Shown: piece after piece, positions 1 through 59,215 of the stretch
Numbering within the stretch: the stretch's first letter is position 1
Layout of the letters: every line of letters begins with the position of its first letter
Notes under the pieces: model-generated
Database searches by the model: none
What the model was told of the DNA's origin: nothing
The model's input: the letters and a program-made list of their open reading frames with translations, nothing else
From: a virus
Length of the DNA stretch: 64,000 nucleotides
Strand: one strand, 5' to 3'
IMG/VR virus record: IMGVR_UViG_3300033153_008530
Location: 23,012-87,011 of that record
Position numbers and translations under genes: made by a program

Positions 1-71
1 GTTACTGCAATAAATAATAATAATGCAAAAGTAGTCTTACGACCACCACAGAAATTAAATAACTTTTCCAT
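1..71 (-). CDS. Partial small membrane protein, possibly holin-like (runs off window start)
   Basis: ATG at 71 on - strand reads MEKLFNFCGGRKTTFALLLFIAV: basic RK followed by a hydrophobic stretch, with an A/T-rich leader; not in the ORF track. Confidence 0.4.
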   Translation of the reverse strand, partial: MEKLFNFCGGRKTTFALLLFIAV

Positions 72-109
72 AATTTTTAATTTAAAATGTAACATAATAT
101 ACAGAAAAT

Positions 110-1318: not shown

Positions 1319-1364
1319 ACTGACGATACTCCTATATATGCTATAAACCAATAAATTTAACTAT

Positions 1365-2396: not shown

Positions 2397-2397
2397 A

Positions 2398-2922: not shown

Positions 2923-2939
2923 CCAACAAATAAGTAAAT

Positions 2940-3623
2940 ATGGCACAAAGTATTTTGATCATTGCTGAGTCTGGAGCTGGTAAATCCACTGCAGGTAGGC
3001 ATTTAAATCCAAAAGAAACATTTTGGATAAACGTAGCAAATAAACCATTACCATTTAAGGGATGGAAAAAGAAGTATAAAAAATTAAATAAAGAAAATTT
3101 AGATGGTAATTTATCATCTGTTGCAACACCAACTGGTATTATTAAGGCCATGGACTATGTAAGTAATGAGAGACCTGAAATTAAAGTTCTAATTGTAGAT
3201 GATTGGCAATATATGTCAGCATTTGAATATTTTGATAGAGCAGATGAAGTAGGTTATGCTAAGTTTACTGACATTGGTAAATGGTTAGCCAAAGTTGCAA
3301 AAAAACCTATGTCATTAAGAGAAGACCTATTTATATTTTTCATGACTCACTCTGAAGAAACAACAGACTATAAAGGAAAAAGAAAACAAAAAGCAAAAAC
3401 AATTGGTAAGATGGTAGATGAAAAGCTTACCCTTGAAGGTTTATTTTCAATTGTCCTTTATGGAAAGATAAAACAGAATGAGAATGGTGAAACTGACTAT
3501 GTATTTGAAACAACAAGTGATGGATCAAATACATGTAAAGCACCTATGGGAATGTTTAAAACAGAAGTTATACCAAATGATCTGAAAATTGTTAAAGAAG
3601 CAATTATTGAATACGAAAAATAA
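2940..3623 (+). CDS. AAA_24/Sak4-like P-loop ATPase (recombination)
   Basis: N-terminal Walker A AESGAGKST, Walker B LIVDD, FMTH, C-terminal KAPMGMF; adjacent to the SSB-like gene. Confidence 0.75.
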   Translation: MAQSILIIAESGAGKSTAGRHLNPKETFWINVANKPLPFKGWKKKYKKLNKENLDGNLSSVATPTGIIKAMDYVSNERPEIKVLIVDDWQYMSAFEYFDRADEVGYAKFTDIGKWLAKVAKKPMSLREDLFIFFMTHSEETTDYKGKRKQKAKTIGKMVDEKLTLEGLFSIVLYGKIKQNENGETDYVFETTSDGSNTCKAPMGMFKTEVIPNDLKIVKEAIIEYEK

Positions 3624-42480: not shown

Positions 42481-45400
42481 TTACCACCATCCTGAGTTTC
42501 TTCTATCATTCAAATAATTTCTTCTAGAGTTATTTCCATATCCACTATTGTTTCTACTTTTACTATAATAGTTTTTCATATATGCTTCAATTTCCTCATC
42601 TGTTTTATTTAACCCTTCTAATCTAGATTTTTCTGCCCAATAGTCATTAGAAGAATTGCCTGATTCTGCACCAAAGTCTCTTGCCTTGGTTGGATCAAAT
42701 GTTGTGAAACCTCCACTTGGTGTATGAATATTATATTGAGGATATAATTCATTAAGAGTTTGTGCTTGTGCTCTGTTTGTTATTCCAGAAACAAGTTGTG
42801 CTCTCATATTATCCCGCTTCATAGATCTTGCATTATCATATTGTTGATTAGCAACAGTTGTTTCATCATAGAACTGTTTTCTTCCCGCTTGATCAGCTAA
42901 GGAGGCTCTATTTAGTATGTCTGCTCTTGTGTTTTCAAACTGATTAGCAATTCCAACATTTCTTCCTTCATAATCAGAAAGAACATTAGCTGCTCCTGCT
43001 AACCCTTGACCTTGAATATTACTTACTCTAGATCCCATACCTTGTGGTCCAAACTGTGCGGATGCTCTAGCTGCAATACCTGATTGTTCAGCATTGGCTG
43101 CAAGCGCCCTACTTGGATCATAAAACGTTGGATCTGGTGTGAATACATCAGCTGGTTGATAATGAGGCATGTATTTCTTAATTGGTTGTGCAAAAGCTGC
43201 GCCTGCATTTATAACGTCTTGTGCCCACCAATCTGCGTCAGCTCTATCATAATTATATGAAGGATCATTAGGAGTGTCCTCATCTTCAGGATCAAATGTA
43301 ATATCTTCTGATTGCCAATTATCTCCTAATGCTCCTGATAATTGTTGTAATGTTGTATCACCTAAAAAGGCATCTGCTGAACTTAATCCTGCTGCATATG
43401 TTGCCTGATCCCAATCTTTACCAGATAAAGTTTCATCTTGTAATCCCTGTTGATACCATCTCATAGTAGGAAACTTATCTTTTAACATATCAGGATTCAT
43501 TTGGTTAAGAGCATTATATGAAACCTGAAAATCATATGATTGATTTGCGTCAGGTTCAGGTAAGCCCATATCTTCATAAACTTTTGTTATTTCCGCATTT
43601 GAATATTTACCAGTACTACTATCCTTTTTCCAAGCTTTATCCATGGGTCCTTTAGTTCCAGGTGCTATATAATTTGGATCTCCTACATCTCCTTCTCCCC
43701 AATAATATTGATTAAATGTTTTACCACCTTTATAGTCACGTTTATCCATACTCCTTCTAGTCTCAAGAATAATATTTGCTCTTTGTTGATTTACTAACTT
43801 TTCAATTTGTTGATCTGCATCTAACTCATATGTAGCACCTCTTTTATTTGGATTGTCATCCGCATATTTCTGTGCATTTTGAAAAAATTCTTGTTTAAAA
43901 TTGTCATCATTGAATGCCTTTTCATAATTTTGTTTAATATATGCAACTCTTCTTGCAACATCTTTAAGTTCATCATCAGAGTAAGTAGTTCCATCATCTT
44001 TTCTCATATCCAACTTTGTCAATGCAGTTAATGTTTCATTATCATAATTATCCCCCATTGTATGATAAACATCCTGCTCTGTTTGATAACCTGATATCTT
44101 TTTATAACCACCACTTGGTGTTTTATAGTAGAAGTTTCCTGAACCATTTGCAGCTCTATGTGCTGCTTGTGCTGCCGCTTCATTGTCAAACATTTCATTA
44201 TCTGGTATATCTGATAGTTTAACTGAACCACCGCTTTGGAATCTTGGTGTTCCACCACGTCTCTGAATTTCTATTTCTTCTTGTACTTGACCTTCTTCAA
44301 CAGGAATATCAAATCTCTGATTATAAAAATTAGGATTATTCTGTTGTTGATTCTGCATATATCTTAAATAAGCATCTCGTTTATCTTGAAGTTTTTGCTG
44401 ACGTCTAGATAATCCACCTTCATCTTGATCATCTCCTCTAAATATGTCTTTAAAGTTAGATACTTTATCATGTAAGAATTGATTAGGATAATATTTTCTT
44501 GGTCTCCTTTCATCAAAGTCTTCTTTAAATTCATCAATTTCTTGATTAGTTTTTATTCCTGTATCACCAACAAAATTATATGTCCAATCTTCATTAGGAG
44601 TCTCTGGATCATTGTCTACATCAAAGGGTCTCACAATATCTTCTTCAAAAGCATCAAGATTTTCCATATCATTTGCTCTAAAGTATTTTCTCATGTCTCT
44701 TTTTCTAAGATCTCCAGAATGTTTTAATTCAGGAGAAATAGGAATTCTTATACTTTGTTCTTGTGTAAGAAGAGTATCTTTAACAGTTTGATCTAACTCT
44801 TCCCAGTTTCCATCTGGATTTTCACTTAAGTAACGCTCACGTGCAGAGTTACTTAAAGAATCATGAAATCTTCCTTTTTGTTCAAGAGGATATCCCCTAT
44901 CAGTTTCATATCTTTTAAGATATGAATCTCCTTTATAATCATATTGAGTTCCTCCACTTAGATTATCAAAATACTTTTCAGTTGAATAATTACCTACTTC
45001 ACTTGTATAGTCTTTAAATGATTTTCTTATTGTGTTAATTTGATCTTTTGATAAATTATAAGTATTTAACTCAGGATATTCAGATATCTTGAATGCTTCT
45101 TTATCATCCATAGTTAATAGCTTATCTAAAAACTCATCATCTATGTCTACATCTTCTCCTAATATTTGATTTATACCTTGTTTCTTAAACTCATTTAAGT
45201 GAAATAATTCATAATCACCTTTTGATTTGTCATAGTCTTCTACAAATTCATCAGAATAATCTCTCATTCTCTGTCTTTTAAATGCATCCTGACGTCTTTC
45301 TTCTCTTCCAGCAAGCCTTTTCATAATTCTTTGTTTCCTTTTCTCATCATCCCAGACACCACCTCTTTGAAAGTGTCCACCAAACATTGCTTCTTGTTGT

Positions 45401-47034
45401 TCTTGATCCGCAAAAGGGTTCTCAGTAAACGGCATCTGTACAAATTGTGATGCTTGCTGTGCTGATATTGGATGAGGGGTACCTTCTTGTTGTTCACTTT
45501 GAAAAACACCAGCTCCCATATCTGAATAACTAAACTTATCCATTAGTCCTTGTATAACTTCTGGAGGTAAACTATTCATGAATTGATCAGGATTTGCCAT
45601 AATATCCATGTAAAAATTATTCAACATATCTTGTTGTAATTCTTCAGGTGATGGTTGTCTTTGTTGAGGTTGTTGTTGTTGTTCAGGAACTTGTGATTCA
45701 TTACCACCTGGATAACCCCCCTGCATATCACCTCCCATTTGAGCTACATTTAATCCAGGAAATCTTTTTGCCATTCTTTTATTTCCACCGTGAGCTGCAA
45801 ACATAGGAGGATCATAATTTCTTTCAGCTCTATTTTGATCAGTCATCTCTCTTCTTACACCTCTATTATGTCTTCTATTATCTCTTCTATTTGGTGCTCC
45901 TGCTCTCCAATCTTGAAACTTATCTCTAATTCCAAAATTTGGCATTTCTCTACTTGTATCATATTGAGAAGTATTAGATTGAACATTACCTTGTCTTGGA
46001 TTATTAGCTTGCCATGTATCAATAAAGTCTTGACTCATTCTATCTCTTGAATTACCTTGTGAATCTACACGTCCTGGATATGGAGTAAAACCTCCTTCAG
46101 GAGCACTAGTTGGGCGACTAAAATGTTGACCTTGTCCCATCCATTCATTACCTGTTGTTTCCATTCCTGGAATACTTGGAAATCCACCAAGCTGTGCTTG
46201 TCTTAAAGAAGGATATTTAGCATATACTTTAGATTTTATAGCTGAGGGATTACCTGAATGATGAGCTAGCTTTAATGCTGATCTTGCTCTATCAATTGAA
46301 TTAATAGGATATGTTCCATGAGGTCCTGCAAAATCTTTAACATTAGGATATTTACCTGCATTAGACATCCCTGGTCTTTTTCTTAATTTAGATAAGGAAC
46401 CTCCTTTTTGTGCCATTGGTGCTTCCTCTTGTGGTGGCCCCTCTTGTCCTTCTTCTTGCGGAACTATTTGATTTGGGTCAATTCCTGCAGCTTGTAAATA
46501 AGGCATAGCAATAGCAGGTATCCCGTCAGGAAATCCTTTCATTGATTCCTGAACAATAGCAAGTTTTCCAAGTTTCAAATTAAAGTTACTTATCATCTTC
46601 TCTGCAGTATCCCGCTGAAACAAATCACTTATAGGATCTCTTAGTATCTTCTTATACTTGTTTAAGTCATATTTCTTTGCAATTTCAGCTGGTGTATAAC
46701 TTTTAGATCTTCCTTTCTTAGGAACAGGCATGTCAAACTCTTTAAGAATCTCTTTATCCTTAATTAATAATGATCTTGTATCAGAAAATACAAAGGAGTT
46801 TTCAGGAACAAGTAATGGAGTTCCACCATGAGAATGTCTTTTACCACCTACTCTGTAGTTTTCAGGTATACCATCTCCTTCAAGATCTGTTATAACCCTT
46901 TCATTCTTTTCAGCTTCAATATTTGCGTCATCTCTTGGAACAGGTTTAAGAGTGCTTGATACTTCCATACCAGCTTGTCCAAACTTTGTTTTACTTGATG
47001 CTTGCGGAAGTTTGTTGATTCTTACTCTACGCAT
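42481..47034 (-). CDS. Modular virion cargo protein (1517 aa) with QxGG linkers
   Basis: N-terminal NIEAEKNE..GGKRHSHGG..VFSD domain; DUF6582-like YPINSIDRARSAL module; Gln-rich tracts; AQKGG, AQLGG, AQMGG, FQRGG and FQSGG. Confidence 0.65.
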   Translation of the reverse strand: MRRVRINKLPQASSKTKFGQAGMEVSSTLKPVPRDDANIEAEKNERVITDLEGDGIPENYRVGGKRHSHGGTPLLVPENSFVFSDTRSLLIKDKEILKEFDMPVPKKGRSKSYTPAEIAKKYDLNKYKKILRDPISDLFQRDTAEKMISNFNLKLGKLAIVQESMKGFPDGIPAIAMPYLQAAGIDPNQIVPQEEGQEGPPQEEAPMAQKGGSLSKLRKRPGMSNAGKYPNVKDFAGPHGTYPINSIDRARSALKLAHHSGNPSAIKSKVYAKYPSLRQAQLGGFPSIPGMETTGNEWMGQGQHFSRPTSAPEGGFTPYPGRVDSQGNSRDRMSQDFIDTWQANNPRQGNVQSNTSQYDTSREMPNFGIRDKFQDWRAGAPNRRDNRRHNRGVRREMTDQNRAERNYDPPMFAAHGGNKRMAKRFPGLNVAQMGGDMQGGYPGGNESQVPEQQQQPQQRQPSPEELQQDMLNNFYMDIMANPDQFMNSLPPEVIQGLMDKFSYSDMGAGVFQSEQQEGTPHPISAQQASQFVQMPFTENPFADQEQQEAMFGGHFQRGGVWDDEKRKQRIMKRLAGREERRQDAFKRQRMRDYSDEFVEDYDKSKGDYELFHLNEFKKQGINQILGEDVDIDDEFLDKLLTMDDKEAFKISEYPELNTYNLSKDQINTIRKSFKDYTSEVGNYSTEKYFDNLSGGTQYDYKGDSYLKRYETDRGYPLEQKGRFHDSLSNSARERYLSENPDGNWEELDQTVKDTLLTQEQSIRIPISPELKHSGDLRKRDMRKYFRANDMENLDAFEEDIVRPFDVDNDPETPNEDWTYNFVGDTGIKTNQEIDEFKEDFDERRPRKYYPNQFLHDKVSNFKDIFRGDDQDEGGLSRRQQKLQDKRDAYLRYMQNQQQNNPNFYNQRFDIPVEEGQVQEEIEIQRRGGTPRFQSGGSVKLSDIPDNEMFDNEAAAQAAHRAANGSGNFYYKTPSGGYKKISGYQTEQDVYHTMGDNYDNETLTALTKLDMRKDDGTTYSDDELKDVARRVAYIKQNYEKAFNDDNFKQEFFQNAQKYADDNPNKRGATYELDADQQIEKLVNQQRANIILETRRSMDKRDYKGGKTFNQYYWGEGDVGDPNYIAPGTKGPMDKAWKKDSSTGKYSNAEITKVYEDMGLPEPDANQSYDFQVSYNALNQMNPDMLKDKFPTMRWYQQGLQDETLSGKDWDQATYAAGLSSADAFLGDTTLQQLSGALGDNWQSEDITFDPEDEDTPNDPSYNYDRADADWWAQDVINAGAAFAQPIKKYMPHYQPADVFTPDPTFYDPSRALAANAEQSGIAARASAQFGPQGMGSRVSNIQGQGLAGAANVLSDYEGRNVGIANQFENTRADILNRASLADQAGRKQFYDETTVANQQYDNARSMKRDNMRAQLVSGITNRAQAQTLNELYPQYNIHTPSGGFTTFDPTKARDFGAESGNSSNDYWAEKSRLEGLNKTDEEIEAYMKNYYSKSRNNSGYGNNSRRNYLNDRRNSGWW

Positions 47035-47044
47035 AATTTTAATT

Positions 47045-50000
47045 TTAATCTAAATAATCTACTAACCCACCTCCATCTAAGAAGTTTTGTAATTCATTTT
47101 CATCCATATATACTTCATCACCTACATTCCCACCAAAACGGGCCACTTTTCCATAGTTACCAAATGATCCCATTCCTGTATCTGTAGGTCTAAAGTTTGA
47201 TCCTTGTGCGTTCCACAAATAGTCTCCTTCTAATCCAGATGTATCTGCAGATGTTGCTCTATACATGCTGTCACCAACCAATGTATCTTCAAATTCATCC
47301 TGAGCTTTTCTATTTCTTTTTCCTTGTCCAATAGAACCAAGAACATTTAATCCTGCAATACCAATGTTTGCTCTTTCATCTCCTGATAAGTTTGACCAAG
47401 CAGATCCATGTTCTGCTTTTTGTCCTTTTCTCCAAGCTCTCTTATCTGTTCTATACATTTGTTTTTCTTGTCTTTCTCTTCCTCTATCTCTTTTATAGTC
47501 AACAGTACCAGTTCTTGTTGGTGTAAAAGTTTGTTCATTTTTCGTTTCCCAGTCACTTTGCGATAATATACCTGTACCTTGACCTGTTGGATCTACATCT
47601 TGTACATATTCATCATAAGTACCAGCTCCTGTTCCTGGAGCACCTGTCATTCCAAAGTTCCATTCTCCTTTACGTCCAAATAAACCTTTTCTTTGAAAAT
47701 ATCCTGGATCCATAGAAATATCTCCTTCTTCAATTCCCATATCATCTGCATATTGTTGCATTTGATTATATGCATCTCCTTCTTCTAGTGCTGAATAGTA
47801 TCTTGCTGGTTTTGCACCGGGATATGATACACCCCATTGAGCTTTAGGAATATGACCTCCTAATTGCTTGTGTTTTTGCTGTGTATATATGTCTACTCTC
47901 TCTTGTAATTCTCTTTCTATTCTATCTGATTCACTTTCTGTATATTCTTTTAGCATTATTTCCTCTTTCCTTCCCTCATTATATTCTCTTTTTAATTTCT
48001 CTTCATCAGTCTCACCCCACATATAGTCAGCACCCAAATAACCAAGTCCACCTAATATGCCATATGCACCAAAATCAGTTAAATTTCTTGCCCATCTCTT
48101 TTTAAGACCCAAGCCTTGACCTATACTGAATTTTGATGCAACATTAGTTATAGCCTCTCTTACTTTTGGATCTGTTATTTTACCTATCTTCTCCCATGTT
48201 ATATTTTTTACTGTATAACCACCAGATAAGTCAGCTTTAATATTATCTAATATTACTCTATCATAGTCTGAGATAGTAATACCCATACCTTCAAGTTGTG
48301 CTACAGTATGTTCAAAACCTGCTAGACCTGCTTCATTTAATCCATAAATAGTTACTCCGGGTCCTCCATAATGACCAGGCCATGTTGAACTTTTTGTTTC
48401 TGGATCATAACCTCTAGTAATATCCAGTTTAGGATTATAGTCAGCACCTAATATCTCAGCTCCTGGACCAGTAAATTCTCTGTTAAAAAGAGGCAATCTA
48501 TTAAAAGGTGCCATATCTCCTGTAAATTTATTACCATATTGTCCAAGAGGATCATAGTCTAAATCTGTTACACCAGTGGTTTTTTGTCTTGCGGCAGCGT
48601 CAATTAATATATTTTCTATACCTCCAGCTATGTCTTTATATTCTTGAGGAACATCAACACTCTTAATTGCATTATTTTTATCAATAGTTATACTACCTAA
48701 ATCAACAGATTGTGTACTCTTCAATCCCAACCATGGTGTTCCTTCAGTGTTTCCTTGTAAGGTAATACTATAACCAGAGCCTTCAATTGGTGTTATCCTA
48801 AAATTTTCTGAACCCATTTTTATTCCAAAAAGACGTGGATAACCAATCTGTTGTCTAAAAGGTGAACTTAATTCATAATTACCGTGTGGAGAAAGTTTAT
48901 CTCTAGATGGAAACCAACCACCTGGTGGTCGTTTTGGCATAAATCCTCCCTTTTGCATTTGAGGAATATTTCCACCTCTTTGTCTTTTAGATGGATGTTT
49001 TAATGTCTCATCTTTAGGATCAAAGTCAGAAAAATCATTTGTATTATGAATTCTACCATACCAACTATTCATGTAAGCAGGTGACCATTCTCCGTAATCT
49101 CCTTTTATCATTTTACCTTCATCATCCAAACCATAATCATAGTTAGTATTTTTAACACCACTATTTTTATAATACCAATCTCTACCTAGATTGTTCATCA
49201 CCCTTCTGTCATTTTCTTTTAAAGAACCTACAGTTGTTTTATATAACTTATCTATATCATCATCACTCATTGAATTTCTTTCTGCCCAGGATTGTCTTCC
49301 ATACTTATCTTTTGTTATTAATTCAGGATTATTCTTTCTATAGAACTCTTGTATAGCTTGTCTTTTAGGATTGCTTCCGCTATTAAATATAAAATCTGTA
49401 GCTTCTGCTTTTTCCATTGCAGAATTATAATCCGTTAAGTCATCTGATATATCCATAAGTTTATCCATATATTTAGGATCATTATAGTAAGATAAAGGAT
49501 TTCCCTCTTTACTTCCTTGTAATTGTTCATATTGCACTATCTTATTATGCTGATGTCTTAAACTATCAGAATGTGTTAAACCGTATTGAGCTTGAGGAAT
49601 ATGTCCACCTCTTTGTATATATGGATTATAACCCGGAGCAAATGAAGATTCATTACCTTGATTATCCATTCCCCATGTTGTACCTTCTGGTGTATCAATA
49701 CCATAACCATCAGATCCTGGTATGACATTTTTATAATATCCTTTATTACCTTCTTTGTCAACTCCTTGTTTTTTAGGATTAATAAACGGAGAAAGAGTTT
49801 TTACTCCTTTACGTATAGAAGTAGCAAGGGTGTCATTACCTAATTCTTTATTATAAGCACTTTCATAGGCACCTTGTGAAGCACTATTAGGATTATATCC
49901 AAAATCATCCTTTCTAAAATCAACATCACGTATTCCAGGAGTTGGTCCAATATATCCAGATGGAGCACCTCCTTGTTGAAATCCTTTTTTTAATTGTTTA

Positions 50001-50545: not shown

Positions 50546-50590
50546 GATTTATGCTATATATATAATATACGAAATTTTTGTTAAAACCTT

Positions 50591-50607
50591 TAAACTTTAA
50601 AAGTTTA
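50591..50607. promoter_or_regulatory. 17-bp palindromic box TAAACTTT-A-AAAGTTTA, copy 2
   Basis: 45 nt upstream of the ATG at 50545; its first three bases on the - strand are the TAA that ends the read-through frame. Confidence 0.6.
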
Positions 50608-50799
50608 CATATACTCAATTTCATATCCTTGTTTTTCTAATTTTTTTATTTCTGAATTAGAGAGATTATACTCTCCTCCTTCTTTATAATCTATATTAAT
50701 TTTGTTACCCTCTCTATCATATCCTTGATAAAATTGATTATTAGGTGTATCTAGTAAATCATACTCAGCAGAAGGTATAGACCATAATGGACTTTGTAA

Positions 50800-52962: not shown

Positions 52963-55900
52963 ATTTTACTTGTTCTAGTAGTCCTGGATCTGAAGTTACT
53001 TCCTCTTTTGTCATACCAGGTATATAAGGAATATCTGAACCATAATATTTACCATAAATCCCTCCATATTCAGACTCACTTAATAATGTTGTTGGATTTT
53101 TATATAAAGGTTTATCATTTTTATCTACTATTATAACATCCTCATAAAAGGTACTTGATCCTTTATCTGGATTATCTGGATCACGGGGATCTCGTAAGAA
53201 CATTGCATCTTTCTTTGAAACTTTATAAACTTCATTATATGCATCTTTCTTTGATCCATCTCCTTTATACTTATATGTCATATAGTCTTTACCATCTTTT
53301 CCTTTAGTCAACTTAGGAGTACCATCAGTATTAAATACTAACTCTGCATTTTCATGTTCTTTTATATATTTCTCATTAAGTGCTTGTCTTTGATTTCGTT
53401 GATCTTCTTCTTGTATTATTCTTTGAGTATCTTTTTCAACATACTCTTGTGCTGCATTAAATTCTTCTTCATTTTTAAACTTACTGATTGTTAAAGGTTG
53501 ATTATGCCATTCTCCTTTATTATCATAATATCCTCTATCTGAATGGTTTCTAACATTTTCAACCCAAACTCTTTCTTTTGTTTCAGGATCAATATAATAA
53601 TATCCTCCACCATCCTGAAATTTAGGTACTGAGCCTCCTTTTTGGAAATCCCATTCTGGTCTTGATTGATCAATTCCTGGTATTCTTTGATGACCTTTTA
53701 TTGCTCTTTTATTCCAGACTGCTCCTGAATCAACAGACCAATCATCACTCCAACTAAGATCTCTAAGTTCCCTATAAGGAGATATTTCAACACCACCAAA
53801 CCTATTTGCTACTTCACGCCAATCTATACCAGACATCAGTGGTACACCAGGCATTAAACTTTTACCAAATGCATCAGTAAATTGTACAATAGATTCTGGT
53901 CTAGTGAGTTTTACAACTTTATCTGGACCATGACCATAACTTAAGTCTAAACTAAATGGATTAGATCCATGAAACTTTTCTGGCATTTCATATTGTGACC
54001 AATCTCTCCAACTATTACCTTTTCCATACCATAACCCTTCTGGTTTCTTTAATTTACTTGAATTATGCATACCTATTTCTCCAACTTGAGGATAATCTTG
54101 TAATCTCAATTCTGATCCATGAATAGAAGTAACAGGTGCATCTTTATAATACTTTTCAATCATTTGTCTAGTATCATGCGTTTTACCCATACTTTCTAAA
54201 TAGGCAGTTTGTAATTCATGTAATTCCTTTGTACTTCCGTTTACTGTCCAATCCTTATAAAGTTTAGCTAAATTATATGGCTTATTACCATCCTGAGATA
54301 AGTAATAAGTACCTTTTGAAGTAGGTACAGCAGTAAGTCCAAAATGTGAAGCATCCTTTATTAATTGTTTAGCTATTCTTGTATCTAGTGTATTCGTAAA
54401 CCCCTTCTCATTTATATGATATTTTCTTAAAAAATTATTTACAGCAGGTTTTATAACTCCACCTTTTTGTGCTTTAGGAAGTTCATCTATTTCAAATCCC
54501 TGATTTTTGAAATTTTGGATTTGTTCTTCAGTGAGATCAAGATCCATGTATTCACCTCCTAATTGTTCAACAGGTAAATAAGGATCTTCAAAATCAGGAT
54601 TTAAATCAACGTGTGTTTCAGGATTGTAAATATATTTTTTAAAATCATAATATTTATCTGAAAGTGGCTTTATCGCATCATAGCTATCATGTTCTGGATG
54701 CATTTTGTTAATCTGCCTAATATTATCTTCCATTGGCTTAAATTGCTCATTATAATTATCCCAATAATTCCAATTTTTATAATAAGGATCTCCAAAATAG
54801 TAATTAGTCAATCTCTTTAAAAGAGGTACATTACTATAAGCATTACTTTCTGCTACATCTAATTCTTTTTGAAGATTATATTTATCTAAATCAAGATTAA
54901 AACTTTGAAGGTTCCTGTCTCTTATTTTTTTACTTTGTTCTACAAGGTTAGCTAATCCTTCATAACTCAAAGATTCCATTTGCTCTAAAGAAATTGGAGT
55001 AGGATTTTTTTGTAACCAAGCTGTATATTCTTCCTGGTACTTTTCTTTACTTTTTCCCTCTAATACTTGATGTTCATAGTTTTTTCTCCACCACTCTGTG
55101 TCATAGTCAGTAACTTTTATGTCATATGCCTCTGGATCAATAATTTGTAATTTTTTATCATTTAATACTTTTAAATCTTGTTTATATTTATCATCCCAAA
55201 GATTTACGCTTTGATTTGCAAAACCACCCATTGCTTCTAAATATGGTAAATCAGCACTAATATTATCAAACTTTCTAAAATATGGATTATATATTTGTGG
55301 TACTCCTGACCATGAAGTTCTAGTTCCAGTTATAGAAGGAACATTAAATAACTTTTTCCCTATTGTTTTAAGTAAACTACCTCCTTTTTGATATTGATTA
55401 ACAATATTACCAGTTCTATTATCAATAATATAGTTTCCTTTTATATCAAAAGGTTTACCTCCCATAAATCTTAATAAATCTGTATCTTTTAAAAATTTTG
55501 GAATAAATTTAGATTCTGACTTTTGTAAAGGATGTAAATCCCATGTATCATTATATTGAAAACGTGTTTGATCAAAACCAGAACTACCTTTTCCTATTTG
55601 TGGTTGTACATCCCATCTATAACCTCCCATTATGTTATGACCTTCATCATAAACTGAATGAGTAGCAAAAGGATTGTCAAGTGGATATAAAGACTTTTGT
55701 ACAGTTTGTGAAGGATTGTATGCGCTCTCAGATCCAGGACTATTAGATAAGGCATACGTAAAATATGCTTTTTGTTCTTGTGGGCTTAACGTTTCACCTC
55801 TTCGTAATTTATCTTGAGCACGTTCAGCTATTCTTTTATTAAAATTTTTCTGGACACCTTTTAATTCGTTGTTAAGAATCAACGCATCAGCTTCCTTTGG

Positions 55901-58900
55901 ATATTGTTTTAATAAATTAAAATGTTCCATATCTGATAAAAGAGTATTAAAATATTCATCTTTTCCAAGTATAGAATTCTGCCCTGGAGTAAAATCATTT
56001 ATTCTATAACTTCCATCAGGATTTAAAGAAAATGTATTATGTTGTTGATCTAACCCTAAGCCTACTCTAAATGCATCTACTCTAGATTGACCAGACTTAA
56101 GTGTAGCCAATCTCATATTTTCTAATCTTTCAGGTGTAATAAAATAATCGTCTTTTGCCCTTATTGGATCATTCTTATATTGAGATAATGCATAATTGTA
56201 TGCACCCTGACTAAGCATTTCACCCGTCTTCATGGCTCTCTCATCAGCATTAAGCTTTATGTTTTCTCTGTAAACAGAAGGAATATTTTTAAAATGACTT
56301 TTCTTATAACCAACTGGATTAACAGCATTAAACCAAAAGTTTCTATAGGCATTAAGATTAAATGGATTTTTGTATGAGGGTGGGTGAATGGGTTCTACAA
56401 GTTTTAATCCTTTTCCACCTCCACGTTGTAATTTTTGTATCTCTCCTCCCTTTTGCAACTTAATATTATTTACTTTATTTATAAATGCTGGGTCTACTTT
56501 AATTTGCATTAGTTTATATCCAAATTCATCAGTTACTATATTTATCCAATCTTTAAATTCTTTTTGTATAAAGTTTTTATGTGATCCATCATAGTTTCTT
56601 TGGTGTATTGTTATTTCAGGAATAGGTGGGTCTAAAACTTCAAGCAATTGCTTTATCCTTGCTACTTCTATATTCTTTTCTAGTTCTTTCTGCGAAAATA
56701 TTTCTGTTAGCTTATTGTTTTCTCTTACCTTAGTCTTATAAGCTTTATATGAATCTTTATCTATAGTCTCAGTCATCTTTTTAAACCACTCAAGCCTTTC
56801 CTCTCTTATGTACCTATACTCCGTTTCTTCCCCATATCTCATCTTAAAATAATCTTCTGCTAAGACTTCTCCTTTACTCTTTGTTCCAGCTATAGATATA
56901 TTATCAGGCAACATTAAATACGAACTTATATCATTAACCATTTTACTCAATTCTGCATCCTTATCTCGGAATGACTGATAACCAACCTTATCACTAAGGG
57001 ATCCATCTGGATTGTAAGCTAAAAACGTATCAGGATATTTTTTGGCTAGACTCTCTAGTGAATAACCTTTAGTATCTAAATATTTTTGAACTATTTCATC
57101 ATGACTAGACTTTGTGTCTTTCATCTTTTCCTTATACTTAATCCTAACACTTTTATACTTATCCTTTGTCTGTCGTAATAGGCTCTCCTGCTTTTCTATC
57201 TCATTAAAATTATCTTTTTTTAATTTAATTATATCTTCTGTAGTTTGTTTATCATGTATATATTCACTACGATCACCCTGTGTTGATGTAGCTATTTCAC
57301 CTAACGGTAAATCAATTGTTGTATAACCTTCCTTTACTAACTGTTGAAGATATGCGTAAGTATTTAATTTCTGATAACGTCTATCTTTAGCTTTTGTACC
57401 CTTATTACCTTGTAGCAGTTTTAAAAATTTATTTGCATTTGAATTCTTATTAGAAGTTCCAGTAATTGATTCAGCATTATGAGAATAAAATTCTCTCATC
57501 TCATAATCTCGCATTACTGAAGCATCTCCTAGCAGTGTTTTCTTTCCATCTTCTACTCTATACTTTTCTACTCCCCATGTATCATTACCAAAACGTTTAA
57601 AATATCTACTCTCACGTTTTGTTCCATGTATAACTGTAAATTCATTATTATCTTGTTTAAATTCTTCCCAAGATTTAGGTGGTACTAAAACTTCTTTAAT
57701 ATTCTCTCCTCCCTTTCCTGGCTGCATTGGATCTGATTGAGGTTCTACAACAGTGAAATGAGTTGGATCATCTAAATGCTTAAATCCTCTCATATGAGCA
57801 ATTGTTGTTGGACCTGCTGCTGCATGATGACCTGGAGCTAAAGGGGGAATTGTTGTTTCATTACCAAAATGTTTATCTCCAATAACATTTGTTCCAGGTG
57901 TATTTATAGTATATATTGCATACTCATGATTAGGTGAATCTCTATATTCAGCAGGAGTGTAAGTCTCTAAATATGTATCCTGTGGTTCCAGATTGCCTTG
58001 AATAAAATCCCTATAACCTCTAACTCCTACTTCTGAAAGTATTTTATTTTTGGCTCTAAAATCAAGCTTTGGTTTATAAAGCTTTTGAACTGTTACAGGA
58101 AGAGTTAAATCATTATGAATTGAATTAGCAAGATCAATTGGTTGTATTTCTCCAAATAAATTATTATCTAAAACATAATCATCTAATAACTTAAAATCTT
58201 CTTGTTTAAGACCTTTATTTTGTAAGTATTTCTTTTTAAACTGACCAAGATCATATTCATTATTTAATTTGATTGATGGTAATGTAGATTGCAACTTTCT
58301 AATTTCATCAGCTAATCTCAATGTATGATTAATGCCTTCTCTTTGTACTTTATCTATAAGAGGCATACTTCTGTAAGGACCTTGTGGTATCTCTCTTAAT
58401 GCATGACCCCAATCTATAGATCGTGGTTTATAGGATGATGTAAAAGGTTTAAAAGGTACTGTAGTTGTAATAGGATATCTTATATTTGTATATCCTGAAA
58501 CATTTGAAGGTTTAGTTCTTAACTTAAATTTTCCACCAAATTGTGTTTTAGGTAATTCTTCAACAACATGACCACCTCTTCTGTATTCTTCTATCTCTTC
58601 ATCTGTTAAGTCAAGTTCTTCATATTCTCCACCGTCTTGTTCTTCATCTAAATTATGTCTAAATAAAGGAGATACTCTTTTATAATTTTCTTCTGCAAAA
58701 TATTGTGCATCTTCTGGTCTATCAAATCTCATTGCTTCTCTATCTTCAGGACTTGCATCAGTGTTATAAAAAAGTTGACCATCAGGTCCTTCTTGAATAG
58801 AAGGAACTGCATAATTATCTACAGAAAACATATAATGTGATCCTGGATTGCCAGCCATCTCTGGTGTAGTGTATGGTTCTGTTCCTGTAAAAATATAAGG

Positions 58901-59215
58901 ATCATCTAAAGGAGCAAGCAATCTTTTAGCAGCAGGATTTCCATGCATGACTTCATAAGCAAATCTTGCCTTCATCATACCATCTAAGTTTGGTTCACCT
59001 CCTTCTTGTGCCAAAGGTGTTTCTCTTACAACATCTTCATCAAACTGATGTGTTCCTGAATAAGGTGGTAAAATTCTACCATTAGCCCATAATGGAATTC
59101 CAGTTTGAGACATGTCAATAGATCCATCAGGTGTATGAATATCTATATGAGATCTATCTCTATAAGGAGAATCATCTCTATATCCCATTTTTGATATGAA
59201 CTTCTTATTATGCAT
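52904..59215 (-). CDS. N-terminal part (2103 aa) of the split modular cargo gene
   Basis: Ten QxGG motifs delimit unrelated modules; the last ~18 residues are out-of-frame product of the duplication. Confidence 0.7.
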   Translation of the reverse strand: MHNKKFISKMGYRDDSPYRDRSHIDIHTPDGSIDMSQTGIPLWANGRILPPYSGTHQFDEDVVRETPLAQEGGEPNLDGMMKARFAYEVMHGNPAAKRLLAPLDDPYIFTGTEPYTTPEMAGNPGSHYMFSVDNYAVPSIQEGPDGQLFYNTDASPEDREAMRFDRPEDAQYFAEENYKRVSPLFRHNLDEEQDGGEYEELDLTDEEIEEYRRGGHVVEELPKTQFGGKFKLRTKPSNVSGYTNIRYPITTTVPFKPFTSSYKPRSIDWGHALREIPQGPYRSMPLIDKVQREGINHTLRLADEIRKLQSTLPSIKLNNEYDLGQFKKKYLQNKGLKQEDFKLLDDYVLDNNLFGEIQPIDLANSIHNDLTLPVTVQKLYKPKLDFRAKNKILSEVGVRGYRDFIQGNLEPQDTYLETYTPAEYRDSPNHEYAIYTINTPGTNVIGDKHFGNETTIPPLAPGHHAAAGPTTIAHMRGFKHLDDPTHFTVVEPQSDPMQPGKGGENIKEVLVPPKSWEEFKQDNNEFTVIHGTKRESRYFKRFGNDTWGVEKYRVEDGKKTLLGDASVMRDYEMREFYSHNAESITGTSNKNSNANKFLKLLQGNKGTKAKDRRYQKLNTYAYLQQLVKEGYTTIDLPLGEIATSTQGDRSEYIHDKQTTEDIIKLKKDNFNEIEKQESLLRQTKDKYKSVRIKYKEKMKDTKSSHDEIVQKYLDTKGYSLESLAKKYPDTFLAYNPDGSLSDKVGYQSFRDKDAELSKMVNDISSYLMLPDNISIAGTKSKGEVLAEDYFKMRYGEETEYRYIREERLEWFKKMTETIDKDSYKAYKTKVRENNKLTEIFSQKELEKNIEVARIKQLLEVLDPPIPEITIHQRNYDGSHKNFIQKEFKDWINIVTDEFGYKLMQIKVDPAFINKVNNIKLQKGGEIQKLQRGGGKGLKLVEPIHPPSYKNPFNLNAYRNFWFNAVNPVGYKKSHFKNIPSVYRENIKLNADERAMKTGEMLSQGAYNYALSQYKNDPIRAKDDYFITPERLENMRLATLKSGQSRVDAFRVGLGLDQQHNTFSLNPDGSYRINDFTPGQNSILGKDEYFNTLLSDMEHFNLLKQYPKEADALILNNELKGVQKNFNKRIAERAQDKLRRGETLSPQEQKAYFTYALSNSPGSESAYNPSQTVQKSLYPLDNPFATHSVYDEGHNIMGGYRWDVQPQIGKGSSGFDQTRFQYNDTWDLHPLQKSESKFIPKFLKDTDLLRFMGGKPFDIKGNYIIDNRTGNIVNQYQKGGSLLKTIGKKLFNVPSITGTRTSWSGVPQIYNPYFRKFDNISADLPYLEAMGGFANQSVNLWDDKYKQDLKVLNDKKLQIIDPEAYDIKVTDYDTEWWRKNYEHQVLEGKSKEKYQEEYTAWLQKNPTPISLEQMESLSYEGLANLVEQSKKIRDRNLQSFNLDLDKYNLQKELDVAESNAYSNVPLLKRLTNYYFGDPYYKNWNYWDNYNEQFKPMEDNIRQINKMHPEHDSYDAIKPLSDKYYDFKKYIYNPETHVDLNPDFEDPYLPVEQLGGEYMDLDLTEEQIQNFKNQGFEIDELPKAQKGGVIKPAVNNFLRKYHINEKGFTNTLDTRIAKQLIKDASHFGLTAVPTSKGTYYLSQDGNKPYNLAKLYKDWTVNGSTKELHELQTAYLESMGKTHDTRQMIEKYYKDAPVTSIHGSELRLQDYPQVGEIGMHNSSKLKKPEGLWYGKGNSWRDWSQYEMPEKFHGSNPFSLDLSYGHGPDKVVKLTRPESIVQFTDAFGKSLMPGVPLMSGIDWREVANRFGGVEISPYRELRDLSWSDDWSVDSGAVWNKRAIKGHQRIPGIDQSRPEWDFQKGGSVPKFQDGGGYYYIDPETKERVWVENVRNHSDRGYYDNKGEWHNQPLTISKFKNEEEFNAAQEYVEKDTQRIIQEEDQRNQRQALNEKYIKEHENAELVFNTDGTPKLTKGKDGKDYMTYKYKGDGSKKDAYNEVYKVSKKDAMFLRDPRDPDNPDKGSSTFYEDVIIVDKNDKPLYKNPTTLLSESEYGGIYGKYYGSDIPYIPGMTKEEVTSDPGLLEQVKYDKRGSNFRSRTTRTSKIL
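52909..53015. repeat. Perfect 52-bp tandem duplication
   Basis: 52909-52960 is identical to 52961-53012, plus a 3-bp ATA microhomology. Confidence 0.95.

Follow-up and report, generated by a model that had tools for sequence, protein, structure and literature searches.

In the crAss-like phage crAss001, structural work has shown that short segments anchor the cargo protein gp45: a helix of 14 residues at the muzzle, a helix (residues 214-245) on rings R1/R2 and a domain (residues 425-552) on the portal (PMC10172136). Parts of gp45 lie on both sides of the portal, and the cryo-EM model shows no break between A425-F-G-G and the portal-bound domain (PMC10172136). Cleavage of fused crAss giant proteins has been raised as speculation, and a zincin-like domain was reported for phi14:2 gp65 (bioRxiv 10.1101/2020.03.07.982082). 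Likewise, Iyer et al. 2017 proposed zincin processing of polyvalent proteins (PMC5512222). The N4 vRNAP has HExxH, yet it is packaged whole (PMC5512222; PMC13434306).

Here we analyzed a window of 64,000 nucleotides (positions 23,012 to 87,011 of IMG/VR record IMGVR_UViG_3300033153_008530) from a marine crAss-like phage. An earlier note on this DNA had described three adjacent cargo genes as carrying about 22 SUMO-like QxGG motifs, serving either as sites for cutting after GG or as a repeated loading/ejection tag.

Cargo block and split first gene

The neighboring muzzle gene identifies the genes that follow it as crAss-like cargo genes. The QxGG-bearing proteins are probably cargo that is packed and injected by the phage. 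Contrary to the earlier note, the 2103-, 1166-, and 1517-aa ORFs are not adjacent, as the first two are separated by a 720-aa ORF (Table 1). Comparison with relatives indicated frequent fusion and splitting of genes in this block. The cargo modules of relatives are cell-wall hydrolases and host-modifying enzymes, and one chain can mix periplasm-type (amidase, SLT, lysozyme, VanY) with cytoplasm-type (SET, ART, kinase) modules, the compartments being those expected. None of the modules in the window was identifiable.

The 2103- and 720-aa ORFs are the two parts of a single gene that was frame-shifted and split by an exact 52-nt tandem duplication, in which the peptide MTKEEVTSDPGLLEQVKY is encoded twice. 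P0003 is one continuous protein covering both halves, and its part matching the 720-aa ORF is located behind the part matching the 2103-aa ORF. The duplication is absent in contigs from two other marine metagenome runs, as the X6 contig skips the 52 nt and the run X1 contig continues in single-copy form. For the in-frame TGA that precedes the C-tag extension, no further case was found among 80 related loci, and none of the metagenome contigs aligned here spans this TGA.

Table 1. Features of the cargo block and of the co-packaged giants (positions within the window; residues refer to the protein named)
Feature	Position	Strand	Evidence
Muzzle protein gene, 5' end beyond contig	59215..63999	-	Pfam PF25731 crAss_MUZ, E 4e-20; PHROG virion structural protein
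2103-aa ORF, 5' part of first cargo gene, 10 QxGG	52904..59215	-	Mosaic homology to P0001-P0011, alignment borders at motifs
QEGG (70-73), end of beta-rich N-module, 2103 aa	58997..59008	-	P0001, P0003, P0009 alignments stop at residues 72-74
Full junction cassette 1 (192-228), 2103 aa	58532..58642	-	C-tag HMM iE 1e-7; pLDDT ~30
Minimal tandem junction QKGG-EIQKL-QRGG (921-933), 2103 aa	56417..56455	-	4 residues after confident domain 655-917
Single QKGG (1276), 2103 aa	55379..55390	-	No homologue alignment across motif
Full junction cassette 2 (1550-1586), 2103 aa	54458..54568	-	C-tag HMM iE 6e-7
Minimal tandem junction QKGG-SVPKF-QDGG (1858-1870), 2103 aa	53606..53644	-	Sequence, orthologue alignments
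Exact 52-nt tandem duplication, 2.1 copies	52909..53015		TRF, 100% match
720-aa ORF, 3' part of same cargo gene, no QxGG, TGA end	50800..52962	-	Matches P0003 residues 2588-3108
In-frame TGA, then 64 sense codons ending in C-tag (KEGGEYNLSNSEIKKLEKQGYEIEYM-stop)	50605..50802	-	C-tag HMM iE 2e-8
1166-aa cargo protein, 7 QxGG, basic N-tag, acidic C-tag at end	47045..50545	-	Sequence, homologues, AlphaFold
N-tag (MGKTRRVRVYKKGG...CFDC...FQQGG), 1166 aa	50456..50545	-	Orthologues begin MSKTRKVRVYKKGG
Single QDGG (135), 1166 aa	50132..50143	-	Orthologues: MEEGG at position
Single QQGG (190), 1166 aa	49967..49978	-	Orthologues: FNTGG at position
Tandem junction, degenerate second half, QRGG-HIPQA-QYG (311-321), 1166 aa	49583..49615	-	Immediately before confident domain 323-463
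Tandem junction QRGG-NIPQM-QKGG (522-534), 1166 aa	48944..48982	-	In low-confidence segment 499-577
Tandem junction, degenerate second half, QLGG-HIPKA-QWG (894-904), 1166 aa	47834..47866	-	Sequence
C-tag (FGG-NVGDEVYMDENELQNFLDGGGLVDYLD-stop), 1166 aa	47048..47155	-	C-tag HMM iE 1.6e-9; next gene start 10 nt on
1517-aa cargo protein, counterpart of crAss001 cargo protein 1 (gp45), 5 QxGG	42481..47034	-	Homologues, alignment
N-tag (MRRVRINKLPQA...), 1517 aa	46969..47034	-	N-tag HMM
QKGG (209), end of conserved N-domain, 1517 aa	46399..46410	-	Aligned with EGGG 262-264 of gp45
QLGG (281), end of gp45-like module, 1517 aa	46183..46194	-	Aligned with gp45 K-A-F-G-G at same module end
QMGG (432), 1517 aa	45730..45741	-	Orthologues: AEQGG or AQGGG
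QRGG (556), 1517 aa	45358..45369	-	Orthologues: AQRGW, second Gly lost
Tandem junction RRGG-TPRF-QSGG (924-936), 1517 aa	44227..44265	-	Sequence, orthologues
HEAWH (1116-1120), 3584-aa giant, candidate zincin site	30440..30454	-	Identical in four complete relatives
HEFAH (1396-1400), 3086-aa giant, second conserved HExxH	18844..18858	-	HEF[A/S]H invariant in four complete relatives

QxGG motifs at module borders

The QxGG peptides proved genuine, and they lie at the joints between swappable modules. Their numbers (10, 7, and 5 in the 2103-, 1166-, and 1517-aa ORFs, respectively) agree exactly with the earlier note, as do the tight pairs that it quoted and its approximate count of two for the three giants (1, 1, and 0 in 8,424 aa). 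The 1114-aa ORF has one copy and the 720-aa ORF none. Together, the three cargo ORFs hold 22 QxGG in 4,786 aa compared to 5 in 21,829 aa of the remaining 87-kb contig, an 18-fold higher density (Fisher p 1e-12). Composition-preserving shuffles (n = 1,000) gave 2.4 copies on average and never more than 8 (Poisson p 2.5e-14), and Q occupied position -2 in 22 of 52 GG sites scored.

Both the comparison with relatives and the AlphaFold models bore out the proposed location between modules and depict these proteins as strings of exchangeable modules with the motif at their joints. When internal BLAST alignment ends were counted as coincident if they fell within 12 aa of a QxGG, this was the case for 27 of 38 ends in the 2103-aa protein (expected fraction, 0.12), 14 of 31 in the 1166-aa protein (0.15), and 87 of 385 in the 1517-aa protein (0.095). 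All 12 motifs within the two AlphaFold models (2103- and 1166-aa proteins) fell in segments with a pLDDT of <50, several of them directly adjoining confident domains, and junction cassette 1 had a pLDDT of ~30. By themselves, the joints are thus predicted to be unfolded; they lie between folded modules.

The 2103-aa ORF has an N-module at residues 1-73 and, besides this, two full junction cassettes, two minimal tandem junctions, and one single motif. Its confident AlphaFold segments span residues 4-70, 513-586, and 655-917, the first of which stops at QEGG 70-73. Cassette 1 reads QDGG, acidic helix, GG, strand, and LPKTQFGG, and cassette 2 reads QLGG, acidic helix, strand, and LPKAQKGG. In the 1166-aa protein, a widely shared module (residues 316-510) lies between QRGG 311 and QRGG 522/QKGG 531, and the N-tag includes the first QxGG together with the protein's sole two cysteines. 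The 1517-aa protein starts with a conserved N-domain (residues 1-212), which is followed by a gp45-like module (213-284), then by a variable middle and, at residues 1265-1450, by a conserved C-domain; its 82 homologues have the two end domains alone in common.

A proposed two-part connector tag on cargo proteins

Locally, a degenerate Phi-[Q/K/E]-x-G-[G/x] hinge takes the form QxGG. This hinge closes a basic N-terminal tag (M-R-K-V-R-I-x-x-L-P-K-A-[Q/K]-x-G-G), found at the start of separate cargo genes in relatives, and stands before an acidic helix-strand C-terminal tag (GGEY.LT.EEI..L..GG.IEYLD). The latter is composed of Phi-[Q/K]-x-G-G, an amphipathic helix of about 15 residues (L-T-x-E-E-I-x-x-L), G-G, and a short strand (I-E-Y-L-D-stop). 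In fused genes, including those of the window, the joint equals the C-tag plus the remainder of the N-tag (L-P-K-A-Q-x-G-G), and some joints are reduced to a stump such as GG-x-I-P-K-Phi-Q-x-GG.

For the tag HMMs, 162 cargo ORFs from 80 related loci were used. The C-tag HMM matched 72 times at the extreme C-terminus and 19 times internally, while 57 matches to the N-tag HMM were N-terminal; the N-tag consensus, derived from 53 N-termini, was MRKVKITKLPKA[KQ]xGG. Internal C-tags nearly always continued into (L)P(K/E)AQxG(G). In 46 distinct relatives, a gene ending in a C-tag of the 1166-aa type directly precedes a gp45-like gene that starts with an N-tag. The C-terminus of P0008 coincides exactly with the end of an internal tag in the 2103-aa protein (residue 221), and the gene border may alternatively fall behind the N-tag strand (GGSV-KRVKIKSLP-stop). 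The connector would thus work split or fused. Furthermore, C-terminal tags have nothing behind them to release and therefore would need a function of their own.

A junction profile matched 941 protein clusters (E <= 1e-3) with 2 to 5 copies per protein, and in this wider family internal copies outnumbered terminal ones (242 versus 111). The tag-bearing phages form a large marine clade of crAss-like phages. Strong helix-type tags numbered 0 to 3 per relative across cargo lengths of 1,100 to 4,100 aa (r = 0.38); such low numbers regardless of length are a weak hint at limited docking sites.

Conservation differed between the proteins. Cassettes of the 2103-aa protein shared 55 to 74% identity between nonequivalent positions (68 to 74% for cassette 2 against cassettes at other positions of P0002-P0006), compared to 30 to 45% for modules. 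In orthologues, its junctions were 58 to 72% identical versus 38 to 43% in the remainder of the same alignments (QKGG-EIQKL-QRGG, 58% versus 38%; QKGG-SVPKF-QDGG, 72% versus 40%). The connector in this protein therefore appears to be under selection. As the two cassettes are just 56% identical as DNA, their likeness is not kept by recent gene conversion or DNA-level homology. Several 1166-aa junctions, in contrast, were no better conserved than their surroundings (22 to 39% versus 32 to 41%).

Uncut connector, cleavage site, or passive joint

Of the two options in the earlier note, the repeated loading/ejection tag matches this anatomy most closely, given that in relatives separate cargo genes carry the same peptides at their very N- and C-termini; cutting after GG was not supported. 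We tentatively favor, at not quite even confidence, the view that QxGG motifs serve as glycine hinges in a conserved two-part connector tag carried by virion cargo (polyvalent) proteins and work uncut. The tags would be handles ordered only once on a partner inside the particle, candidates being the portal, the tail-barrel rings, the muzzle, or a neighboring cargo protein. They could bring every module into the procapsid, fix it there, and link the modules into a flexible string that can be threaded through the tail one module after another, with the Gly-Gly hinge uncoupling each handle from the adjoining folded module. This view is supported by the terminal HMM matches, by joints predicted to be unfolded beside confident domains, and by the short segments, bracketed by Phi-x-GG in our reading, that hold crAss001 gp45. 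However, the handle is repeated many times per polypeptide, which is not obviously needed for loading, the 1166-aa junctions lack elevated conservation, and the precedent is a distant gut crassvirus with clear homology at one module only.

Alternatively, the connector could be a spacer that targets a precursor to the procapsid and afterwards undergoes cleavage at Phi-[Q/K]-x-G-G, to either side of each internal cassette but a single time per terminal tag, to free separate effectors in the particle or after ejection. The protease might be a zincin-like domain of a co-packaged giant, an unrecognized phage enzyme, or a host enzyme. Residues are conserved before G-G and none behind, which has the look of a protease site and counts against an uncut connector too. 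The motifs flank cassettes on both sides, also occur as tight pairs, and lie in predicted unfolded stretches between domains. Gene borders anywhere in the connector would be harmless if it were trimmed, and periplasm- and cytoplasm-type modules in one chain would be released more easily by cutting. A cut between gp45 residues 245 and 425 would, by our own inference, explain its two-sided portal location without threading (PMC10172136). The literature proposals on giant cleavage and zincins cited above point the same way, as do two conserved HExxH sites in the same particle: HEAWH, the only conserved protease-like feature near the cargo block, in the 3584-aa giant (with the DFDID of an RNA polymerase at residue 2606), and HEF[A/S]H in the 3086-aa giant. 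These sites make cutting possible. However, neither HExxH region matched Pfam at E <= 1, whether a peptidase or another family, and a third HExxH (1754-aa giant) is present in 1 of 59 relatives.

The analogy with SUMO/Smt3 was not supported. At equivalent positions in orthologues, the hydrophobic residue and Gly are retained but Q is often replaced by K, E, N, or R, and in only 35 to 40% of family P-x-Phi-Q-x-G-? sites is the second position Gly. To our knowledge, the known diglycine proteases (Ulp1, adenain, C39, deubiquitinases) are intolerant of such variation. Pfam families C48 (Ulp1), C5 (adenain), C39, S78, S77, ClpP, and S49 were all absent from the contig and four 100%-complete relatives. 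No peptidase family occurred among 35 tag-bearing proteins, and the motif-bearing proteins contain no cysteine except in one CFDC, and no HExxH. Cleavage is not known from any crassvirus. The crAss001 papers mention none, and a GG motif of the same type is ordered there, continuous with the portal-bound domain of gp45 (PMC10172136). As both Q and the second Gly vary and the seven protease families are absent from the genomes searched, and as a C-terminal tag is useful without cutting, we favor the uncut connector and regard processing as unlikely.

A rather doubtful explanation, slightly more so than processing, is that tags matter only at free ends, internal QxGG having no function of their own and being gene-fusion scars that persist as flexible Gly-rich linkers and would also offer short conserved stretches for module-swapping recombination. 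Internal cassettes are indeed recognizable as C-tag plus N-tag remainder, stumps shrink from the full cassette via GG-x-I-P-K-Phi-Q-x-GG to degenerate Q-Y-G or Q-W-G, modules are exchanged at joints in a block prone to fusion and splitting, and the poorly conserved 1166-aa junctions fit as well. The strong conservation of the 2103-aa cassettes despite their divergent DNA, the excess of internal copies, and the retained hydrophobic residue and Gly argue against it. As a special case of docking, the acidic C-tag of one protein might bind the basic N-tag of its successor; separate proteins would then exit the tail as one noncovalent string, and fused genes would be its covalent version. The opposite charges, the short strand in each tag, the gene order in 46 relatives, and the fusion of the tags in other phages (a hint of the Rosetta-stone type) are consistent with such a train, which we nevertheless consider very improbable. 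Fused joints retain one strand only, and the two strands therefore look like alternatives rather than partners; some proteins preceding an N-tagged gene lack the acidic tag, and pairing of tag variants across phages was indistinguishable from shared ancestry.

Comparison with known systems

The N4 vRNAP bears HExxH, as do the giants of the window, and is nevertheless packaged whole, which counts against processing. The one solved crassvirus, crAss001, is a distant gut phage with clear homology to the window just at residues 210-290 of the 1517-aa protein, which align with gp45 residues 262-341 (46% identity, E 2e-11). The 1517-aa protein did not match Pfam crAss_CARG1, and a weak profile match links its residues 31-50 to gp45 461-480. 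Two GG motifs of gp45 align with two QxGG of the 1517-aa protein and, in our reading of the gp45 sequence, each ordered piece is bracketed by Phi-x-GG, the portal-bound piece beginning with A-F-G-G.

QxGG motifs at module borders

The earlier note described three adjacent cargo genes punctuated by about 22 QxGG motifs. Its counts proved exact, with 10, 7, and 5 motifs in the 2103-, 1166-, and 1517-aa open reading frames (ORFs) and 2 in the 8424 aa of the three giant ORFs, and the enrichment was evident in per-protein shuffling, which gave a mean of 2.4 and a maximum of 8 motifs in 1000 trials versus the 22 observed. QxGG density was 18 times that of the contig's other 49 ORFs. The three ORFs are not all adjacent, as a 720-aa ORF separates the first two. 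Two residues before the GG, Gln was by far the commonest residue. Of the 22 motifs, 17 had a hydrophobic residue (Phi) directly before the Gln, and a Pro was frequent three places further upstream (L-P-K-A-Q-x-G-G).

The placement of the motifs between unrelated-looking modules was borne out by comparison with relatives. Homologues aligned piecewise, the aligned parts starting and stopping at QxGG, as the counts of internal alignment ends in the table indicate. Two AlphaFold models, built from shallow alignments (mean pLDDT 48 and 54), showed separate confident domains within the cargo proteins. In the 2103-aa protein, a beta-rich N-terminal module (residues 4 to 70) stopped at QEGG 70, and a helical domain (residues 655 to 917) ended four residues upstream of QKGG 921. 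Domain 323 to 463 of the 1166-aa protein was bounded by QRGG 311 and the motif pair at 522/531. The structure-prediction check likewise favored linkers between folded domains, in that all 12 motifs inside the models fell in segments with a pLDDT of <50; the chance of such a placement was estimated at about 0.003 from the models' low-confidence fractions, and low pLDDT may be due in part to the thin alignments.

Residues 1 to 73 encoded by the first cargo gene constitute a conserved small beta module that was predicted with confidence and has the pattern G-Y-x-x-D-S-P...I-I-P-S-x-x-I-T-M...P-x-x-Q-x-G-G. In many relatives, the product of the first cargo gene has this module at its N-terminus or close to it, sometimes after a SET domain (homologous proteins P0001 and P0004), and the module may be a piece that sits at the muzzle.

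Terminal tags and their fusion into a connector

The query for related loci was the conserved N-domain of the 1517-aa protein in the form of an alignment, which yielded 520 related IMG/VR places, of which 80 were taken with 10-kb flanks; the IMG/VR search with one protein as the query gave no match. Among the 80 related loci, the cargo block is divided into genes at differing points. Most cargo genes begin with a basic peptide (N-tag), with the consensus MRKVKITKLPKA[K/Q]xGG. Many close with an acidic helix-strand peptide (C-tag), ...Y-K-x-G-G-E-Y-x-L-T-D-E-E-I-x-x-F-L-x-x-G-G-x-I-E-Y-L-(D)-stop, variants of which include ...Y-Q-x-G-G-W-L-D-x-Y-stop. With HMMs built from these gene ends, C-tags were detected 72 times at termini and 19 times internally, and N-tags 57 times at N-termini. 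A C-tagged gene is followed within a few bases by an N-tagged gene resembling gp45 (cargo protein 1 of phage crAss001) in 46 distinct relatives, and the C-tagged 1166-aa and N-tagged 1517-aa genes of the window are likewise 10 nt apart. After an internal C-tag, the sequence almost always continues with (L)P(K/E)AQxG(G), the remainder of an N-tag. From this anatomy at gene ends and joints, QxGG is therefore both the hinge before the acidic helix and the end of the basic tag.

In the 2103-aa protein, each of the two full cassettes (residues 192 to 228 and 1550 to 1586) is a C-tag fused to an N-tag, and the tight motif pairs, such as QKGG-SVPKF-QDGG, are the same connector minus the helix. The C-terminus of the homologous protein P0008 coincides with the end of the first internal cassette, and in a few phages the gene border lies after the basic strand rather than before it. 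The family can be defined as Phi-[Q/K]-x-GG, an acidic helix L-T-x-E-E-I, G-G, and a strand, followed by a stop or by L-P-K-A-Q-x-G. According to the cassette alignment (A5) and the HMMs, the window contributes two internal cassettes, one C-terminal tag, and one tag past a TGA.

Among 1.84 billion representatives, a cassette profile matched 941 clusters at E≤1e-3 and 440 at E≤1e-10, usually with 2 to 5 copies per protein. Strong helix-type tags numbered 0 to 3 per relative irrespective of cargo length. A tblastn search of 50,697 GenBank phage records with the 2103-aa protein, the 1166-aa protein, the gp45-like N-domain, and the cassette gave no match. Isolated tags retrieved nothing usable from Pfam at E≤10, no Pfam model lying over the tag, and the ESM Atlas search with the cassette gave no usable match.

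Many gp45-like proteins of relatives (at related loci L030, L036, L048, and others) have a hydrophobic end such as ...G-S-N-V-F-P-F-M-F-Y-stop, and the 1517-aa protein ends in ...N-S-G-W-W-stop. Read from sequence, this tail would be a third kind of conserved end.

Neither Pfam nor PHROGs matched any of the four cargo ORFs or the 1114-aa ORF. Foldseek comparison of both AlphaFold models with the PDB gave no match at E≤0.001, the matches seen being only coiled-coil lookalikes and weak Sm/SH3-like ones for the N-module. Tag-bearing relatives have SET, ART-PolyVal, Amidase_2, SLT, lysozyme, VanY, LysM, and protein kinase domains. Cysteine is absent from the cargo ORFs of the window save for one CFDC at residues 18 to 21 of the 1166-aa protein, and 97 of 149 tag-bearing proteins in a wider sample are cysteine-free.

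Genome setting and gene structure

The window is part of an 87-kb contig of an uncultured crAss-like phage with an estimated completeness of 72%, in which head and tail-barrel genes are missing. On the minus strand, the muzzle gene, identified by Pfam crAss_MUZ, is followed by the ORFs of 2103, 720, 1166, and 1517 aa, a 1114-aa ORF (MATY...), and giants of 1754, 3584, and 3086 aa. The DFDID motif of the crAss virion RNA polymerase is present in the 3584-aa giant. In crAss001, the virion cargo proteins C1 and C2 are encoded between the muzzle and polymerase genes (PMC10172136). Given this synteny from muzzle to virion RNA polymerase genes and one module homologous to the virion protein gp45, we infer that the cargo ORFs of the window are packaged in the virion. 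At the start of the contig, outside the window, two ORFs with Laminin_G_3 (concanavalin-like lectin) domains probably encode fibre or receptor-binding proteins.

A single gene of ~2800 aa underlies the 2103- and 720-aa ORFs; it is split because the frame is shifted by an exact 52-nt tandem duplication (2.1 copies, 100% identity) in which MTKEEVTSDPGLLEQVKY is encoded twice. Homologous protein P0003 is a single continuous protein across this region, and the single-copy form was found in short contigs from two other marine metagenome studies. The duplication is either a real variant or an assembly error. After the terminal TGA of the 720-aa ORF, 64 in-frame sense codons lead to a perfect C-tag and then a TAA. 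As none of the 136 tag matches in the 80 related loci lies behind an in-frame stop, this TGA is a one-off, representing a nonsense change, read-through, or an error. Contigs from the sequencing runs covered small shares of the stretch and spanned the duplication but not the TGA at 50800.

An ORF of ~165 aa lies between the gp45-like gene and the next cargo gene at four related loci. Its pattern is M-K-x-L-x-L-T-x-G...D-D-E-D-F-Y-W-L-S-Q-W-N-W, and it looks like a mobile endonuclease-type insert.

Coordinates of cargo genes and associated features (window positions unless a contig or related locus is named)
Feature	Positions	Strand	Internal alignment ends ≤12 aa from QxGG	Expected fraction
Cargo ORFs, whole block	42481-59215	-		
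2103-aa ORF	52904-59215	-	27/38	0.12
720-aa ORF	50800-52962	-		
1166-aa ORF	47045-50545	-	14/31	0.15
1517-aa ORF	42481-47034	-	87/385	0.095
Beta module of first cargo gene	58997-59215			
52-nt tandem duplication	52909-53015			
Codons from TGA to C-tag and TAA	50605-50802			
CFDC of 1166-aa protein	50483-50494			
3584-aa giant	23045-33799	-		
HEAWH, 3584-aa giant	30440-30454			
HEFAH, 3086-aa giant	18844-18858			
HEIIH, 1754-aa giant	35614-35628			
Laminin_G_3 ORFs	contig 1-3210 (G000:C1, locus L082)	-		
~165-aa inserted ORF	L010:3908-4405			
~165-aa inserted ORF	L015:12569-13066			
~165-aa inserted ORF	L019:12522-13298			
~165-aa inserted ORF	L023:13103-13594			

Relation of the 1517-aa protein to gp45

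One module of the 1517-aa protein was 46% identical to gp45 over 83 aa (BLASTP, E = 2e-11). The GG motifs flanking the shared module also align, QKGG with E-G-G-G and QLGG with K-A-F-G-G of gp45. The gene for the 1517-aa protein occupies the same place as in the 80 related loci, within the block that comes after the muzzle gene and precedes the genes for the MATY protein and polymerase giants. Profile comparison of the N-domain with gp45 gave a weak match (E = 0.097), and crAss_CARG1 (PF25725) did not match the 1517-aa protein, for which no Pfam family was found at E≤0.01. Judged from sequence and gene order, the 1517-aa protein is the predicted counterpart of gp45.

Three pieces anchor gp45 in the crAss001 virion (PMC10172136): one helix of 14 residues is located at the muzzle, another helix lies on rings R1/R2, and a domain sits on the portal. 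By our reading of its sequence, each anchored piece is bracketed by GG motifs. The cryo-EM model spans residues 425 to 552 (PMC10172136), a range taken from the text of that paper, the PDB-deposited gp45 sequences being full length. Residues 425 to 428 are A-F-G-G, of the same type as the K-A-F-G-G aligned with QLGG. As the model is continuous (PMC10172136), A425-F-G-G is ordered and uncut in the crAss001 virion. The GG motif of gp45 is without description in published work and was recognized here from sequence.

Proteases and the fate of the connector

The SUMO-like cutting after G-G proposed in the earlier note was not upheld, since both the second Gly and the Q vary within the family and seven protease families were not found. 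The window has G-G at all 22 sites. Across the family, a second G followed the first Gly at only 35% of the 306 sites of the form P-x-Phi-Q-x-G-? and at 40% of the 1412 of the form Phi-Q-x-G-?. Orthologous positions include AQRGW, AQSGY, and AQNGK, and the Q is often replaced by K, E, N, or R. No match at E≤1 to PF02902, PF00770, or PF03412 (C48, C5, and C39) was found in the contig and four 100%-complete relatives, so that the suggested search for a Ulp1/C48-like protease came back empty for these genomes. PF03420, PF04586, PF00574, and PF01343 (S77, S78, ClpP, and S49) were also absent from the contig and the same relatives, as was any peptidase family from 35 tag-bearing proteins.

Within the block from the cargo genes to the giants, HExxH occurs only in the three giants. 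HEAWH of the 3584-aa giant and HEFAH of the 3086-aa giant are invariant in the four complete relatives, have conserved flanks (GSNYTDLYHEAWHGF and HEF[A/S]HP), and are candidate zincin-like sites; neither region matched a Pfam peptidase at E≤1. The HEAWH region probably corresponds to the zincin-like domain reported in phi14:2 gp65 by authors who speculated that fused giants are cleaved (bioRxiv 10.1101/2020.03.07.982082). HEIIH of the 1754-aa giant was rejected as a processing zincin: its SprT-like match was sub-threshold (E = 0.009), and only 1 of 59 related proteins has this HExxH, so that it does not qualify as a conserved catalytic site. The 3584-aa protein has both HExxH (residue 1116) and DFDID (residue 2606). 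In phi14:2, the zincin-bearing protein (gp65) is distinct from the polymerase (gp66), whereas the window appears to encode a fusion of the two.

We tentatively favor a role of the tags as an uncut connector or handle, to which we would give somewhat less than an even chance. This reading is based on the observed tag anatomy, the position of the tags at gene ends and joints, and their spread across many phages. In the 2103-aa protein, the connector is also better conserved than the modules. The tags, which AlphaFold predicts to be disordered on their own, would become ordered on a partner inside the particle, as gp45 of crAss001 suggests by precedent. They would load the modules into the particle and position them, and would keep them as a flexible string that is threaded in order through the tail. 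The small number of strong tags, whatever the cargo length, is a further weak hint of such a handle. Polyprotein processing by a packaged zincin or another protease seems unlikely, even though conservation before the GG and freedom after it is the layout of a protease site, periplasm-type and cytoplasm-type modules share the same chain, and two giants have HExxH sites invariant in the complete relatives. Against it stand the variable Q and second Gly, the absence of the seven protease families and of peptidases among the tag-bearing proteins, and the ordered, uncut A-F-G-G of gp45. Moreover, the motif-bearing proteins have neither HExxH nor, save for the one CFDC, cysteine, and nothing would be released downstream of C-terminal tags. 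As to the giants, the candidate HExxH regions lack a Pfam peptidase match, the third HExxH is not conserved, and the HExxH of the N4 vRNAP is carried in an uncut protein (PMC5512222, PMC13434306). No cleavage at connector motifs is known, and the one same-type motif of gp45 was seen uncut.

It is rather doubtful that the tags are passive fusion scars and recombination joints. Upkeep of cassette likeness by DNA-identity recombination was considered separately and rejected, the two cassettes being only 56% identical as DNA. Least probable is a head-to-tail train in which the acidic tag of one protein pairs with the basic tag of another; when the last 60 aa of the 1166-aa protein were co-folded, as alignments, with residues 1 to 210 of the 1517-aa protein, the score was 0.15, which is below the level that can be read either way. 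A broader form of the uncut connector is conceivable, if somewhat unlikely: one universal plug-in connector in marine crAss-like phages would suffice to load any module and would fix the threading order, with optional trimming after delivery by a packaged zincin-like giant. Were this so, any connector-flanked effector would become cargo. The connector would then amount to a cargo-loading and ejection code for the most abundant phage group of gut and ocean, and to a handle for packing foreign proteins into phage particles.

Significance

No description of the connector was found in the literature searched. New here are the resolution of the motif into an N-tag and a C-tag with internal joints as their fusion, the gene borders shifting within the connector, the lack of conservation of the Q and second Gly, and the protease survey across complete genomes. 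Also new are the alignment of two window motifs with gp45 motifs together with the same-type A-F-G-G uncut at gp45 residue 425, the conserved HExxH sites as the sole candidate protease, and the identification of the 2103- and 720-aa ORFs as parts of a single gene disrupted by a 52-nt duplication. The only solved structure (PMC10172136) raised the question of how crassviruses select, store, and eject several megadaltons of protein cargo, and a connector present in >900 protein clusters, always at joints or ends of exchangeable modules, makes this question testable. The connector would explain the free shuffling of cell-wall hydrolases and host-modifying enzymes among these phages and provides a simple annotation marker for cargo genes without a known family. 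A further caution for annotation is that small events, such as the 52-nt duplication, can split or fuse the "giant ORFs" of such contigs.

Comparison with known systems

The capsid targeting sequences of T4 internal proteins and the loading peptides of encapsulins and bacterial microcompartments are short terminal peptides that suffice to load unrelated cargo into a protein shell. Such peptides are often an amphipathic helix separated off by a flexible linker, and those of microcompartments also occur between domains. The connector tags have no sequence similarity to any of them. T4 signals occur solely at the N-terminus and are cleaved off by the prohead protease gp21, whereas the gp21 family, S77, was not found in the contig or the four complete relatives. 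The diglycine systems (SUMO/Ulp1, adenovirus protease, ASFV pS273R, and the C39 bacteriocin leader peptidases) resemble the connector in having a short motif that ends in G-G with a hydrophobic residue a few positions upstream and in its location at unit borders in virus-particle proteins. However, no such protease was found here, G-G and Q are not invariant, and the hydrophobic residue is at P5 rather than P4. N4 is likewise a podovirus with a giant packaged RNA polymerase bearing HExxH, but its proteins are unrelated, a repeated connector motif has not been reported, and the polymerase is packaged uncut (PMC13434306).

The cargo proteins are polyvalent proteins as defined for phages and conjugative elements by Iyer et al. 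2017 (PMC5512222), with several unrelated domains per polypeptide according to mosaic partial-coverage homology, the separate AlphaFold domains, and the domains of relatives. Like those proteins, they are long chains joining unrelated effector domains and would be delivered by the virion, as the genes suggest here. In contrast, that paper describes no conserved connector peptide, the words "linker" and "crAss" being absent from it. The processing enzyme proposed there is an embedded zincin, a frequent but not obligatory component of polyvalent proteins, whereas the four motif-region ORFs contain no HExxH; the modules of the window also belong to no Pfam or PHROG family.

A close parallel is gp45 of Bacteroides phage crAss001 (Bayfield et al. 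2023, PMC10172136; PDB 7QOG, 7QOI, 7QOJ, 7QOL, and 8CKB). It differs in having 842 aa, Phi-x-GG instead of QxGG, and no second protein of its kind, whereas three genes of the window encode ~5500 aa of cargo, which includes full helix-strand cassettes. It is encoded at the same genome position, after the muzzle gene. Its N-terminus is also basic with a GG at the end, and by our own sequence reading a tag-like M-S-V-E-E-L-E-A-L follows F-A-Y-G-G. In the virion, short ordered segments hold gp45, with unresolved linkers between them (PMC10172136).
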